Assembly (NCBI GenBank): GCA_020725385.1
Contig: DYFC01000040.1
Span: forward strand, 1 to 10,316
Reading direction: 5' to 3'
Source of the DNA: Nitrospira japonica
GTDB taxonomy: Bacteria; Nitrospirota; Thermodesulfovibrionia; Thermodesulfovibrionales; SM23-35
DNA length: 10,316 nt
Shown here: positions 1,742-6,139 of the stretch, in pieces
How positions within the stretch are numbered: the first letter of the stretch is position 1
How the letters are laid out: each line of letters opens with the position of its first letter
Translations under genes and position numbers: made by a program
Notes under the pieces: model-generated
Seen by the model: only the letters and a program-made list of their open reading frames with translations
Database searches by the model: none
Told to the model about the DNA's origin: nothing

Positions 1742-4150
1742 ATGGCAAAGGTACCTATTAGTATTGAAGAAGAAATGAAAGGCTCTTATCTTGATTATGC
1801 AATGAGTGTAATCATTGGTAGAGCATTGCCCGAAGTTAGAGATGGTTTAAAACCTGTGCAAAGAAGAATCCTATATGCAATGTTCAGGGAAGGACTTCTT
1901 GCAGGGAGAAAATATTCAAAATCAGCCGGTGTTGTAGGCGAAGTTCTAAAGAAATATCATCCTCATGGCGACAGCGCTGTTTATGATGCTCTGGTGAGGC
2001 TTGCTCAAGATTTTAATATGAGGTATCCCCTGATTGATGGTCAGGGCAACTTTGGGTCAATTGACGGAGATCCTGCTGCTGCCTATCGTTATACCGAAGC
2101 CCGGCTTTCTGCTTTAGCAGAAGAACTTCTTGCAGATATAGATAAAAATACAGTTGATTTTGTACCGAACTTCGATGAGACTACAGAGGAGCCTGTTGTT
2201 TTACCATCAAGAATACCGAATCTTATTATTAATGGTTCATCAGGAATAGCGGTTGGTATGGCGACTAATATTCCGCCTCATAATCTTGGAGAAGTTATTG
2301 ATGGATTAATTGCAATGCTTGACAATCCTGATGCAGGGTTAAAAGAACTTATGATGCATATCAAAGGTCCTGATTTCCCCACAGGCGGCATTATTCATGG
2401 AACAGAAGGAATTATGCAAGCATATAATGAAGGCAAAGGACTCGTAAAAATCAGAGCTAAAGCCCGTGTGGAACGTGAATACAGGGGCGGTGAGAACATA
2501 ATCATTAACGAATTACCTTACCAGGTCAATAAAGCAAAATTAATCGAAAAAATTGCTGAACTCGTGAGAGAAAAAACTATAGAAGGCATATCAGAAATCA
2601 GGGATGAATCTGATAGAGACGGAATCAGAATTGTTATTGAATTAAAAAGAGGAGAGATCGCTCAGGTTATTCTTAATAATCTTTATAAACATACTCAAAT
2701 GGAAACAACTTTCGGAATTATTCTTCTTGCTCTTGTAAATGGACAGCCAAAAATTCTTACCCTCAAAAAAGTACTCGGCCATTTCCTGCAGCATAGACGT
2801 GATATTGTTCTTAGAAGAACACGTTTTGAACTCAAAAAAGCTGAAGAAAGAGCCCATATATTAGAAGGATTAAAAATTGCTCTTGATCATCTTGATGAAA
2901 TAATAGCTTTAATCAGAAGTTCAAAGAACCCTGAAGAAGCAAGAATCGGTTTGATGACAAATTTCCCTTTAACAGAAATTCAGGCACAGGCAATTCTGGA
3001 TATGAAATTGCAGAGGTTAACAGGACTCGAGCGGGAGAAAATAGTAAGAGAATATCAGGAGACCTTAAAGGAGATAGCACGTCTTAAATCAATTCTTGAG
3101 AACGATGCGCTTGTTGTCCAGATAATTAAAGAAGAATTGCTTGAAATTAAGAATAAATACGCTGATGAAAGAAGAACAGAAATTTCCCTTGAGACAAAAG
3201 AAATAACTCTGGAAGATCTTATTACAGATGAAGAAATGGTTATCACTCTTTCCCACCAAGGCTATATCAAAAGGAATCCTTTGAGCGCTTATAGGAGTCA
3301 GAGACGCGGTGGCAAGGGCTTGATAGGCATGGAGACTAAAGAAGAAGATTTTGTCCGGGAATTATTTATCGGTGCAACCCATGATTATATGCTTTTCTTC
3401 TCAAATTTCGGCAGATTATACTGGCTTAAGATATATCAACTTCCTGAGGCAGGCCGGGCTGCGAAAGGCAAAGCACTTGTGAATCTTCTTGCTCTTTCAG
3501 AAGGAGAGAGGATAACAACTGCTCTTCCTGTCAGGGACTTCAGTCAGGGTTTTCTTGTTATGTTTACAAAAAACGGTATTGTCAAGAAGACAGCTTTGAG
3601 TGAATATAGCAATCCGCGCGGTAAAGGTATAATTGCGATAACACTCGAAGAAGGCGATGAGTTGATTTCAGTTAAGAAAACTGATGGACACAGTGATTTA
3701 ATTATCGGCACACATAACGGCTTGGCTATAAGGTTCAATGAAGAAGATGTTCGGGATACTGGCCGCACTTCTAAAGGTGTAATAGGTATTAGATTGACCG
3801 AAGGAGATGAAGTTGTTTCAGCAGAGGTAGCTTCAGACAAGACTGCCATACTTACTGTAACTGAAAAAGGTTTTGGCAAAAGAACAATGGTTGAAGAATA
3901 TCCACTTCAGGGACGGGGAGGCAAAGGAGTAATTTCAATCAAGTTAACTGAAAAGGGTGGCAAAGCAGTCGGTCTAATGAATGTAAGAGATGAAGATGAG
4001 CTTGTTATGATAACAAGTTCAGGAAAACTCATACGTACAGTTGCAGGAAGCATTTCTTTATTGGGCAGGAATACCCAGGGTGTAAAACTAATGGATGTTG
4101 ACGTTGATGATAAAATTGTCAGCATCGGCAGAGTGGCCGAGAAAGATTAA
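1742..4150 (+). CDS. gyrA: DNA gyrase subunit A
   Basis: 802 aa with [44 protein letters not shown], the catalytic Tyr in AAYRYTEAR (Y117) and [15 protein letters not shown]. The C-terminal beta-pinwheel has an intact GyrA-box QRRGGKG (3299-3319), which identifies it as gyrase rather than ParC. Confidence 0.97.
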
Positions 4151-4159
4151 GAGGTTTCG

Positions 4160-5197
4160 ATGAGCGAAACACAGGCAACATTAAAAGAATGGCAGAAACT
4201 TTATGAAGCAGCGATTGAATTCCGAAAACTTGAGCCATGGAAATGGGTGCATGAAACCGATATATTCGGTGTTCAGAATCCTGAAACCGGAGAAATAGGA
4301 TACTGCTGTATTATGGGTGAACTCGGAGAAATGCTCGCAATGGCAGTTTATAGGGGAACAGAAGGATTACAGGGATATAGAAAAATACAAAAAGGACATA
4401 TTGATACCGAAGATCCTGATTCACTTTTTGTCCAGGATTGTCTAATGCTTTCTTTTGAAAATAAAAAATTTGTACATGAAGATGACAGAGAAATTATCAA
4501 TGAATTAGGTTTTAGATTCAGGGGTAAAAACGCATGGCCTGTTTTCAGAAGTTACAGGCCTGGATATTTCCCCTGGTTCCTTAATAGAGATGAAATTATT
4601 TATATGACCTTCGTTATAAATCAGGCAATAAATATTTGCCTCAGAATGAAAGATAACTGGAGAATATTACTTGCACCAAGAAAGGGGTTATATTTAGTAA
4701 GAACTCCTGAAATGAGAAACGGCCAGTTAATATGGAAAGATAGCTGGATGCTTCCTAACCCAATCGAAGTAAGAAAAGAAAAACCCGGATTTAATATAGA
4801 TGAAAGCAAAATAAAAGAAATAAAAAATAAACTTTCATTTTCAACTGCTATATGGGAAATAGACTTCTTTTATTCTCCTGTCCCTATAAATCAGGGTGAA
4901 CAACCTTTTTTCCCTTATTCATTAATGGTTATTGACCATGATTCGGGACTTATAAATTTTATGCACATTGCCGAACCATTTAAATATCAAAAGGAGTTCG
5001 TTGATAAATTTATTGAATTTTTTGCAACAAATGGCATTATACCTCTTGAAATTCTTGTACGGAAAGAAGAAGTAAAAAAATTCCTGGAGCCTTTTGCTTC
5101 AATCCTCAATATAAAATTAACTTTAAAGAAAAAATTATATAATGTTGAACATGCCCGCAAAGAATTATTTAAATTCCTTAAAAGAAAATCTGTATAG
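4160..5197 (+). CDS. Conserved hypothetical protein, two domains; the C-terminal domain resembles a Tab2-like/RNase H-like fold
   Basis: 345-aa ORF starting 9 nt after the gyrA stop, with GAGG at 4151-4154. It has natural-looking motifs (LEPWKWV, GYCCIMG, WPVFRSYRPGYFPW, WEIDFFYSP). I cannot assign a function. Confidence 0.85.
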   Translation: MSETQATLKEWQKLYEAAIEFRKLEPWKWVHETDIFGVQNPETGEIGYCCIMGELGEMLAMAVYRGTEGLQGYRKIQKGHIDTEDPDSLFVQDCLMLSFENKKFVHEDDREIINELGFRFRGKNAWPVFRSYRPGYFPWFLNRDEIIYMTFVINQAINICLRMKDNWRILLAPRKGLYLVRTPEMRNGQLIWKDSWMLPNPIEVRKEKPGFNIDESKIKEIKNKLSFSTAIWEIDFFYSPVPINQGEQPFFPYSLMVIDHDSGLINFMHIAEPFKYQKEFVDKFIEFFATNGIIPLEILVRKEEVKKFLEPFASILNIKLTLKKKLYNVEHARKELFKFLKRKSV

Positions 5198-5226
5198 TTT
5201 TAACCAGAAATTTTTTAAGTATTAGG

Positions 5227-5261
5227 AAAAAAAGGTGGCAGAAGGGGGAAACTTCTGCCAC
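5227..5261 (-). terminator. Rho-independent terminator, minus strand
   Basis: Perfect 10-bp stem GTGGCAGAAG (5235-5244) / CTTCTGCCAC (5252-5261) with a 7-nt loop. On the minus strand it is followed by C and U7 (plus-strand A7 at 5227-5233). There is no U-tract on the plus side. Confidence 0.85.
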
Positions 5262-5298
5262 TAAAGGGGGGAGTTTAGAGGTTTGCGCCTCAAAATCT
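5227..5298 (-). ncRNA. Candidate small regulatory RNA (~70 nt) with three hairpins and two C-rich loops
   Basis: Minus-strand sequence AGAUUUUGAGGCGCAAACCUCUAAACUCCCCCCUUUAGUGGCAGAAGUUUCCCCCUUCUGCCACCUUUUUUU. It is a GC-rich island in an AT-rich gap, flanked by a promoter-like sequence and a terminator, and has no AUG. Confidence 0.6.
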
Positions 5299-5303
5299 AC
5301 CAA

Positions 5304-5331
5304 ATATTAGCAGATGCTAAAAAAGATACAA
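5304..5331 (-). promoter_or_regulatory. Putative sigma70 promoter for the candidate sRNA
   Basis: Minus strand reads TTGTAT (5331-5326), 16 nt, TAATAT (5309-5304), with an extended -10 TG at 5312-5311. The predicted start is about 5297-5298. Confidence 0.55.
5307..5320. promoter_or_regulatory. Palindromic operator candidate TTAGCA-N2-TGCTAA
   Basis: Perfect 6-bp arms with a 2-nt spacer, overlapping the spacer and -10 element of the predicted sRNA promoter. Confidence 0.55.
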
Positions 5332-5409
5332 CAAAAAGCAGAATAGTATCTAATTTTTTTTTAAAATATGATTATAAGAAAAGTATATAGGTATGTTTCT
5401 AAGTATTTC

Positions 5410-6024
5410 TTAGAGTTTTTTCAGACAGAGACTTACTCTGTAATATCTCAAGTCCTGTTTTTGATTATCGGGAGTAAAAACAATAGGTTCCTGTTTTTCG
5501 TCCATGAGTATAATTATGTTTTCTTTTATAATCATTTTTCTTATAGAGAGTGTTTTAGATGACCATACAAAAACAGTATCGCCACTATTTACAGGTTTAT
5601 TGGGTTCAACAAGAAGCAAATCACAATTTTCAAGTCCTCCGCATGAATTTATTCCTTTTGTAGTTATATAAAAAGCTCCGGGGTCATCTGTTGTTGCATA
5701 TTCAAAGCTTTTTGCTACCAAAGAAGGATAATCAAGGTCAATGCAATCACCCCATGCTTCAATCTGTGCTTCGTCAAGAACAGGGACTTTGCGTGATATA
5801 AACATTTTTTCGGATGCATCTGATTCAAGAGTTAACAATGTATCAAGAGGGACTTCAAGAGATTTTGAAAGTTTAAGCAATGTTTCCCTGCCCGGTTTTC
5901 TGATGCCTGTTATAAGCTGACTAACATAAGCACAACTGACACCCATTCTTTGAGCAAGTGTAATTGCTTTAATTCCCCTTGACTTCATTAATTTCCTGAG
6001 TTTATCACCAAATGTCATTTGCAT
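5410..6024 (-). CDS. XRE/Cro-CI family HTH transcriptional regulator with a degenerate S24 (LexA/CI-like) C-terminal domain
   Basis: N-terminal HTH_3-type domain FGDKLRKLMKSRGIKAITLAQRMGVSCAYVSQLITGIRKPGRETLLKLSKSLEVPLDTLL. The C-terminus follows the S24 pattern (KVPVL...AFYITTKG..DLLLVEP...SGDTVFV...SIRK). An alternative start exists at 6018. Confidence 0.88.
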   Translation of the reverse strand: MQMTFGDKLRKLMKSRGIKAITLAQRMGVSCAYVSQLITGIRKPGRETLLKLSKSLEVPLDTLLTLESDASEKMFISRKVPVLDEAQIEAWGDCIDLDYPSLVAKSFEYATTDDPGAFYITTKGINSCGGLENCDLLLVEPNKPVNSGDTVFVWSSKTLSIRKMIIKENIIILMDEKQEPIVFTPDNQKQDLRYYRVSLCLKKL

Positions 6025-6030
6025 TTAGTA

Positions 6031-6073
6031 ATTATAATATATTTACTATAGAATTTTAAATAACTTTTGCTAA
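6031..6073 (-). promoter_or_regulatory. Putative leaderless promoter of the regulator plus a partial operator copy
   Basis: Minus-strand TATAAT (6036-6031) lies 6 nt before the ATG at 6024, with a weak -35 TTAAAA (6059-6054). Positions 6060-6073 (ATAACT-TT-TGCTAA) match 9 of 12 arm positions of the 5307-5320 palindrome. Confidence 0.45.
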
Positions 6074-6139
6074 TCAGGTTAAATTTTTTATTTAAGCAAT
6101 TGAATTAATTTTAGATGTCTTTAACCCGAAAAACGTGTT

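Follow-up and report, generated by a model that had tools for sequence, protein, structure and literature searches.

The stretch of DNA analyzed here, hereafter the window, comprises positions 1 to 10,316 of contig DYFC01000040.1 (GenBank assembly GCA_020725385.1) and carries an RNA element on its minus strand at 5297-5227, in a 212-nt gap that separates a gene for a DUF7309/DUF6930 protein from a convergent gene for an HTH_3 regulator. This element is probably an independently transcribed, trans-acting small RNA (sRNA) of about 70 nt, whose run of C residues would act as a seed against G-rich Shine-Dalgarno sequences. The analysis showed that the sequence is conserved, that it bears signals of a promoter and a terminator, that the motif is accessible, and how the locus is arranged and the regulator folds; transcription, the targets, and a link between repressor and operator are predictions. 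The element is very likely a genuine gene for a small regulatory RNA, which one group of bacteria from hot springs and sediments has kept beside a lambda-repressor-like regulator, and its exposed run of six C looks suited to covering G-rich ribosome-binding sites. The window belongs to a 2.46-Mb metagenome-assembled genome (MAG; G000) that is 96.6% complete, and the element was present there as a single copy by both BLAST and covariance model, the next match of the model having E = 0.2.

The conservation of the element among relatives was measured with a covariance model, R1, built from 12 sequences. R1 matched the window element at 70.8 bits (E = 3e-14) and detected the element in 22 of the 57 genomes, and in 8 of the 26 genera, of one Thermodesulfovibrionales family. 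An order-wide search with the model (151 genomes) yielded only four weak, non-syntenic matches outside the family; these (L050-L053, E from 2e-5 to 6e-4) had no regulator nearby, looked like unrelated terminators after coding regions and were set aside, as were L048 and L049 (genome G066, contig C72), which represented one bidirectional terminator elsewhere. BLAST found the element in 8 of 41 relatives, the window's genome included, with matches beginning at positions 50-66 of 117 in the query, which correspond to the first hairpin (H1, described below) or to the C-run, that is, to the predicted start of the RNA. When one genome per species was scanned with a sequence pattern, 10 loci emerged, all in Thermodesulfovibrionales, Nitrospirota or Nitrospiraceae MAGs, and a metagenome scan returned 33 loci, of which about 26 were true homologs with the same flanks and seven were discarded as GC-rich chance matches (L143/L162, L145, L147, L153, L158, L168, and L169). 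The resulting homolog table held 39 distinct sequences, compiled from 42 inputs by removing L014, L172, and one duplicate. With the neighboring protein at 57-73% identity, the C-run and the terminator stem were more conserved than the intergenic DNA surrounding them. Within the window, UCCCCC occurred four times where 2.47 occurrences were expected, a count reached by 46 of 200 shuffles; the statistics of the single sequence were unremarkable, and it was the conservation in relatives that raised the element above chance.

The most conserved feature of the element was an exposed C-rich motif, in agreement with the initial annotation, an earlier reading of the window from its letters, which had proposed such a motif; motifs of this kind are known from LhrC, RsaE, and 6C. 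The seed region, AAACUCCCCCCUUUA (5262-5276, minus strand), with its core CUCCCCCC at 5273-5266, was predicted to be single-stranded, with a mean unpaired probability of 0.86. The core was found in 32 of the 39 homologs, a count with partial ascertainment, as the search patterns demanded the motif, and the remainder deviated by a single C or a single base. Of 21 predicted homolog transcripts, 14 had a mean unpaired probability of at least 0.79 over the C-run. The working part of the RNA would thus be the single-stranded CUCCCCCC(UUU) directly 5' of the terminator. In one homolog (L011, genome G004, 1500-1601), tandem duplication of a UAUAACUCCCC unit had given the sRNA an extra C-rich site.

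Three abutting hairpins had been described for the element, and the letters and coordinates given for all of them were correct: GAGG-CGCAAA-CCUC (H1) at 5291-5278, CUAAA-CUCCCCCC-UUUAG (H2) at 5278-5261, and GUGGCAGAAG-UUUCCCC-CUUCUGCCAC (H3) at 5261-5235, followed by a C and the U7 tract of the terminator at 5227-5233, all on the minus strand. When folded, H1 and H3 were robust, but H2 was not a hairpin. H1 formed with a probability of 0.99 at 37 °C and 0.85 at 60 °C; H3, which contains 10 pairs (6 of them G-C) and was called an intrinsic terminator in the window scan, formed with a probability of 0.98 and 0.88, respectively. The fold energy of the 77-nt stretch was better than that of 200 of 200 shuffles (z = -4.57), with H3 contributing most. 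The arms of H2 are complementary, but the hairpin was missing from the minimum free energy and centroid structures, reached an ensemble pair probability of only about 0.011, had -1.3 kcal/mol in isolation, and competed with an extension of H1. Because H2 does not fold, the first C-run lies in a single-stranded linker and not in a loop. Both copies of UCCCCC reported as twin C-rich loops were present (5272-5267 and 5249-5244), but the first belonged to the linker, and the second, in the UUUCCCC loop of H3 (5251-5245), was restricted to the window's genus, as a C-rich terminator loop occurred in 14 of the 39 homologs, all of window-genus type.

As a conserved architecture, the three abutting hairpins did not hold, H2 being unfolded and H1 (5278-5291) being specific to the window's genus. 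Within that genus, a stem of 4-9 bp was kept at the position of H1 while its letters differed (AGAGG/CCUCU, AGGU/GCCU, GGGU/ACCU), and other genera had different 5' hairpins or none in its place. Beyond the linker, the window's genus possesses an extra C-rich site in the terminator loop and the CCUC of H1. Across genera, H3 was kept with a variable loop and H1 and H2 were not kept, a pattern that the initial annotation had named as speaking against an sRNA, but the linker C-run was nearly invariant, which it had not foreseen.

The terminator was the one structure common to the homologs, with 9-11 bp or more and an almost fixed stem sequence, and RNAalifold on 12 sequences recovered H3 only. 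In an alignment of 23 terminators fitted to the model, which included one reverse-strand row, 98.4% of the cells were paired; 3 of the 11 pairs had changed on both sides, 4 never varied, and 4 varied on one side only, and the covariation score was reached by 0 of 500 shuffles. Base pairing with mRNAs does not need a stem so nearly invariant, and the stem could instead point to an RNA that binds or titrates a protein, with the terminator stem and C-run together forming the recognition site; Hfq, for instance, is encoded in the genome. However, an exposed C-run beside a U-rich flank fits the known class of pairing RNAs, as described for LhrC (PMC4132741). Titration of the CsrA type was rejected, as no CsrA gene was found in the genome and the RNA is poor in GGA, with no GGA motifs. 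To our knowledge, there is no bacterial protein family that reads C-runs, and a protein-binding role in place of mRNA pairing appeared improbable.

Promoter signals were recognized upstream of the RNA on the minus strand. A -35-like hexamer, TTGTAT (5326-5331), matched the consensus at 3 of 6 positions and aligned with TTGACA or TTGACT of other genera. It was separated by a 16-nt spacer from the extended -10 element TGCTAATAT (5304-5312), whose hexamer TAATAT at 5309-5304 corresponded to a TAnnnT found 16-18 nt past the -35 box in relatives. Promoter scanning called the form TTGACn-17-TAATAT with TG in two homologs, as TTGACA-17-TAATAT in L016 and as TTGACT-17-TAATAT in L044. Across the homolog table, in which the promoter was mis-assigned in 4 rows (L010, L013, L144, and L152) and counts are approximate, TTG occupied the -35 position in 29 of 39 homologs, the spacer measured 16-18 nt, and the -10 box was TAnnnT preceded by TG, reading TAATAT in 16 of 39. 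A perfect palindrome, TTAGCATCTGCTAA (TTAGC-N4-GCTAA; 5307-5320, both strands), extended from the promoter spacer into the -10 box and had no other exact match in the window. AGC-N4-GC was retained in all homologs, with arms complementary at 4 or more of 5 positions in 25 of 39. Further upstream, an AT-rich block, CTTATAAT...AAAAATTAG (5346-5378, minus strand), aligned across genera with only 60-70% identity in the neighboring protein, and recurred upstream of the -35 box, at a different distance, in a relocated copy of the element (L047, genome G066); the block may serve as an UP element or as the binding site of a factor.

The distance from the -10 box to the C-run ranged from 21 to 86 nt across the homolog table while both ends stayed fixed, and the 5' part had a length of 18 to 85 nt. 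A fixed promoter and a fixed 3' motif joined by a variable 5' part match the way in which sRNA genes evolve. Insertions and deletions in the 5' part also excluded a conserved peptide, and a small open reading frame (ORF) inside the RNA, which contains no ATG, was rejected. The conserved -10 box predicted a start at about 5297, where the initial annotation had placed it, giving a transcript of about 71 nt (5227-5297, minus strand) that would begin 7 nt past the -10 box and end at the U-tract. We infer that transcription proceeds from this promoter of the sigma-70 type, despite its weak -35 box, and stops at H3.

The element behaved as a gene of its own in these comparisons, in keeping with independent transcription, one of the two origins suggested earlier (the other being derivation from a 3' untranslated region, UTR). 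Sequence signals and comparison pointed to a promoter and a Rho-independent terminator belonging to the element itself, and did so in the relocated copy as well. In 19 of the 22 genomes, the element adjoined the regulator gene (HTH204; 5410-6024, minus strand, 204 aa) on the same contig and on its downstream side, 100-230 nt past the stop codon; in G064, the regulator and sRNA were located at contig ends that abut, and the sRNA of G055 lay 160 nt from the contig start. Such constant linkage, with no convincing terminator between gene and element and a weak -35 box in the window, would also be expected if the element merely supplied the regulator gene with a 3' UTR and an intrinsic terminator, with no separate or trans-acting RNA, and if the C-run and upstream blocks were kept through slow evolution of the locus or for mRNA stability. 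In most genera, however, a near-consensus promoter stood between the gene and the element. The G066 copy kept its promoter after the divergently transcribed queF and had no co-directional gene within 550 nt upstream, an arrangement that a plain 3' UTR would hardly explain. Moreover, a terminator needs neither a fixed stem sequence nor a fixed 8-nt single-stranded motif, and the C-run and terminator stem outconserved the intergenic DNA around them. An element that is nothing but the 3' UTR is therefore unlikely.

The same linkage, missing terminator, and weak -35 box could be accommodated by a 3'-UTR-derived sRNA, that is, an RNA mainly processed from read-through of the regulator gene, with a minor internal promoter and with trans action through the C-run. 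The conservation of the promoter, near consensus in most genera, and the G066 copy without an upstream gene argue against such an origin, as does the fact that no conserved RNase-type cleavage motif was seen, though none was searched for. We give this origin a small chance and retain independent transcription as the preferred explanation.

The downstream neighbor of the element varied, being the convergent DUF7309 gene in the window and, in genus g11, a co-directional TGS-GTPase gene that has a TGcTATATAAT promoter of its own. Because this neighbor differs between genera, a leader or attenuator role for the element is unlikely. In the window, the DUF7309/DUF6930 gene (4160-5197, plus strand) begins 10 nt after gyrA, and the two genes (1742-5197) form an operon-like arrangement; the DUF7309/DUF6930 gene occurred at this place only in the closest relative, other genera having there a TGS-GTPase gene that points the other way. 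A distance of 30 nt separates the end of the convergent gene from the U-tract of the element, and the plus strand carries the hairpin followed by UAAAGGGGGG, a poor U-tract, making read-through plausible. Transcripts of the operon that extend beyond the hairpin would include a sequence perfectly complementary to the sRNA, and the element might then act in cis or as the antisense partner of the gyrA-DUF7309 transcript. Yet the convergent layout was confined to the closest relatives of the window, with the downstream gene co-directional in g11 and different flanks in G066, and the element was conserved in all of these arrangements. An antisense or cis role is thus highly improbable, and action in trans remains the preferred reading.

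No Rfam family covers the element, which we regard as a putative new family of sRNAs whose general kind is already known; as the initial annotation had supposed, no known family was matched at the gathering threshold by cmscan of the window and ten homologs. In a lax cmscan of 5150-5450, the minus strand matched LhrC (RF00616) at 19.8 bits (E = 1, gathering 110) and sbrA (RF01489) at 18.6 bits (gathering 45). Membership in either was rejected, as these scores were sub-threshold and the matches were absent from 10 homologs of other genera. RsaE/RoxS, 6C, and CcsR were absent from the Rfam matches at E ≤ 10 for both 5150-5450 and the 10 homologs.

By analogy, LhrC is the closest known RNA in function and layout. 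In LhrC of Listeria, CUCCC...UUUU sites in a loop, a linker, and the terminator loop bind a G-rich site before the start codon (PMC4132741), and the window RNA has AAACUCCCCCCUUU in its linker and UUUCCCCC in its terminator loop, the parts that cmscan aligned. In contrast to LhrC, which exists in five copies in Firmicutes and depends on LisRK, the window RNA is a single-copy element of Nitrospirota for which a CI-like repressor would be the controlling factor. Its 5' hairpin H1 presents the loop CGCAAA without UCCC or any C-rich loop, and its terminator-loop motif is specific to the genus (14 of 39) whereas the linker site is conserved. RsaE/RoxS and other UCCC sRNAs of low-GC Gram-positive bacteria share the class of motif, their accessible C-rich motifs pairing with Shine-Dalgarno sequences (PMC2790875, PMC6158497), and RsaE/RoxS shares an AT-rich genome context; the C-run described here, of six to seven C, is longer than UCCC, and length, structure, and lineage differ. 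The 6C RNA of Actinobacteria is reported to bind several mRNAs via C-rich loops of at least 6 C (PMC6486639). In Corynebacterium, 6C has been tied to the SOS response (PMC5014011), a tie echoed by the LexA/CI-like neighbor of the window RNA. However, 6C has its C-runs in two hairpin loops, whereas here the conserved C-run is in the linker and a C-rich loop exists in one genus only. Membership in the LhrC, RsaE, or 6C families fails on score, copy number, and lineage.

Targets were predicted by pairing the seed (linker region) computationally against the start regions of the 3430 ORFs of the window's genome. The start region of the HU gene ranked third of 3430, at -22.8 kcal/mol. Its ribosome-binding site, AAAGGGGGG (AGAGGGGGG in two genomes), was located 8-13 nt before the start codon in 30 of 30 genomes, with a G6 run in all 30 of these family genomes. 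When each sRNA was paired with the HU leader of its own genome, energies from -14.0 to -28.6 kcal/mol were obtained in 18 of 18 sRNA-bearing genomes. The HU gene is thus the best predicted target, and the leader of the DUF485/actP acetate-uptake operon is predicted as a second candidate. The HU ribosome-binding region was nearly letter-identical (AUGAAAGGGGGGAAAUAUAG AUG) in 30 of 30 family genomes (L175-L204), and it is far more conserved than Shine-Dalgarno function needs.

The candidates with G-runs included HU, DUF485 (leader of an actP-type acetate permease operon), and the neighboring DUF294 gene, with acetyl-CoA synthetase, S-adenosylmethionine decarboxylase, cytochrome c7, and PilZ proteins as further ones. 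DUF485 was present in 15 of the 57 genomes, 14 of which had the sRNA, and its leader contained a run of at least 5 G in 10 of 15. Searching for targets by exact G-runs was abandoned, as only 7 of 51 GGGGGAG sites lay before ORFs, and 11 GGGGGGAG sites were rejected as targets since they had no clear ribosome-binding site. The family contains two acetyl-CoA synthetase paralogs that are about 43% identical (L101-L130); the paralog with the G-rich ribosome-binding site was confined to roughly the genera that have the regulator and sRNA, and carried a conserved TGCTAAGAT extended -10 promoter. Hfq, encoded in the window's genome on contig C43 (105.9 bits), may assist pairing between the sRNA and its mRNAs.

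The constant upstream neighbor of the element is the 204-aa regulator. Pfam matched HTH_3 in its N-terminal part (E = 2.9e-10), which is followed by a C-terminal S24-type beta-domain. An AlphaFold model (predicted local distance difference test score of 84.9) found its best full-length fold matches, covering both domains, in the lambda repressor (3bdn), a 186/lambda hybrid, and the LexA of T. maritima, with E from 3e-7 to 2e-4 for 3bdn, 7jvt, 3k2z, and 1jhf. The layout of helix-turn-helix and beta-domain resembles that of lambda CI and LexA, as does a 14-bp palindromic candidate operator overlapping a promoter. Unlike those repressors, the protein was unmatched by Pfam Peptidase_S24 at E up to 0.001, and its gene is chromosomal, syntenic with the genes for dGTPase and gyrase (gyrA), and not part of a prophage. 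In 23 aligned relatives, Lys163 was nearly invariant and the Ser position was missing in L064, L070, and L072. Because the serine at the catalytic position was not invariant and Pfam S24 was unmatched, self-cleavage is doubtful; we describe the modeled protein as CI/LexA-like and claim no self-cleavage for it.

Upstream of the regulator gene (6025-6098, minus strand), a TATAAT box occupied 6036-6031, six bases before the ATG. Such a box (ATATATTATAAT) preceded the start codon by 5-8 nt in 22 of 22 loci (L054-L076), which had no Shine-Dalgarno sequence. The regulator mRNA is therefore probably leaderless, like the lambda cI mRNA made from PRM. Half-sites of the palindrome were also found in this region, at 6098-6092 (TGCTTAA) and 6073-6068 (TTAGCA), both on the minus strand. 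Upstream of the regulator, copies of T(T/A)AGC(A/G) numbered 36 in the 22 loci, against a shuffle mean of 4.7 and maximum of 11, and at least one was present in 18 of the 22. Orthologs of the regulator were detected in 24 of the 57 family genomes, and 21 of the 22 sRNA-positive genomes held one, the exception being G055, where the sRNA is near the contig start. The palindrome in the promoter spacer would serve as the operator of a dimeric repressor, most likely the upstream CI/LexA-like protein, given the same half-sites before its own gene. We infer that this protein probably represses the sRNA through TTAGC-N4-GCTAA.

Promoters with the same spacer palindrome numbered 11 in the window's genome against 0 in the reversed genome, and a second pattern gave 14 against 1. 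Promoters with (T/A)AGC-N4-GCT(T/A) were located at C5:15110, C6:28586, C13:39986, C16:8233, C45:16025, C45:30819, and C51:9096 (L131-L137). Of the seven ORFs examined downstream of palindrome promoters, four encoded multiheme cytochromes; the products of the other three were a beta-helix protein resembling NosD, a protein with a PEGA domain, and a pilin-like protein assigned to no family. These promoters may form a regulon of envelope electron-transfer genes. Family-wide, 25 palindrome promoters were found against 2 in the backward control, with 21 of them in the 25 regulator genomes (G055 included) and 4 in the other 32, counts that fit the operator idea and are confounded by kinship and base composition.

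Three further sites bearing palindromes were observed. A perfect palindrome, AAGCATTTGCTT, with the same core as the putative operator, is situated at 1590-1601 of the window, 140 nt upstream of gyrA and at the 5' end of a divergent Mg-chelatase-like gene. In locus L138 (G000:C10:56258-56799), the promoter TTGACA-17-TAACAT (C10:56739, minus strand) has AAGCATATGCT in its spacer; past it on the same strand, an ORF-free run of about 95 nt begins near C10:56710 and closes with a GAGGGUAG/CUACCCUC hairpin and a U-run. This locus is a second candidate sRNA, G-rich and without an Rfam match. In locus L075 (genome G024), downstream of the regulator gene, the promoter and palindrome were kept (TTGCTT-17-TAAATT with AAGCATATGCT) and the C-run and terminator had decayed, an apparent natural loss of the sRNA.

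Several observations weigh against an independently transcribed, trans-acting sRNA. The -35 box of the window is poor and the promoter scan was silent at that site, and, with no terminator between the regulator gene and the element, read-through transcripts of the regulator would contain the element as well. A search for RNA sequencing runs that include the stretch listed none. Contigs of the metatranscriptome from the same study matched the window in two short pieces less than 90% alike (gyrA and secD) and nowhere at the element, an outcome that is uninformative about expression either way. Related genomes are non-independent samples, and the C-run counts carry the ascertainment mentioned above. 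In 7 of 21 homologs, the C-run was partly paired (0.30-0.63), mostly with an upstream GGG. The regulator was present without the sRNA in three genomes, G012, G018, and G024, the last of which retains a decayed remnant. As for the targets, the G6 site of HU was equally invariant in 12 examined genomes without the sRNA, so that target and sRNA do not co-vary, and the sRNA may have evolved onto an HU target that was already fixed. In genus g11, the flank past the C-run reads AUAU in place of UUU, leaving a shorter HU duplex of about 7 bp. Acetyl-CoA synthetase was rejected as a conserved target, its G5 being found only in the window's genus.

Weighed together with these points, the preferred reading is still that of an sRNA whose C-run would pair with the G-rich Shine-Dalgarno sequence of selected mRNAs and so block access of the ribosome, as LhrC, RsaE, and 6C do. 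A more far-reaching proposal, for which we see only a slim likelihood, is that the CI/LexA-like protein works with the sRNA in a single conserved switch that includes a respiratory regulon and mimicry of the anti-Shine-Dalgarno sequence. By binding TTAGC-N4-GCTAA in the spacers of strong promoters, the repressor, made from a leaderless mRNA, would hold down both the sRNA and the envelope respiratory genes, comprising at least four multiheme cytochromes together with pilin-like and NosD-like proteins. Once released, the sRNA would mimic the tail of 16S rRNA, its CCCCCCUUU resembling the anti-Shine-Dalgarno sequence, which we take to be CCUCCUUU. It would then outcompete ribosomes where the ribosome-binding site has G in place of the consensus A, first at HU and then at acetate uptake. 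If true, such a switch would couple the state of the nucleoid and the entry of carbon to the electron-transfer program.

No literature on regulatory RNAs in Thermodesulfovibrionales (Nitrospirota) was found, as judged by title. The findings provide a testable sRNA gene with a defined seed, a candidate regulator, and a few conserved candidate targets, namely HU and the leader for acetate uptake. The element merits annotation, and its promoter, seed, candidate regulator, and candidate target are unusually well marked. Genomes that hold the regulator and have lost the sRNA would serve as natural knock-outs, and covariance model R1 could be used for annotating these MAGs. The element also suggests that C-rich seeds, a solution so far known in Firmicutes, Actinobacteria, and Alphaproteobacteria, have arisen in yet another phylum.

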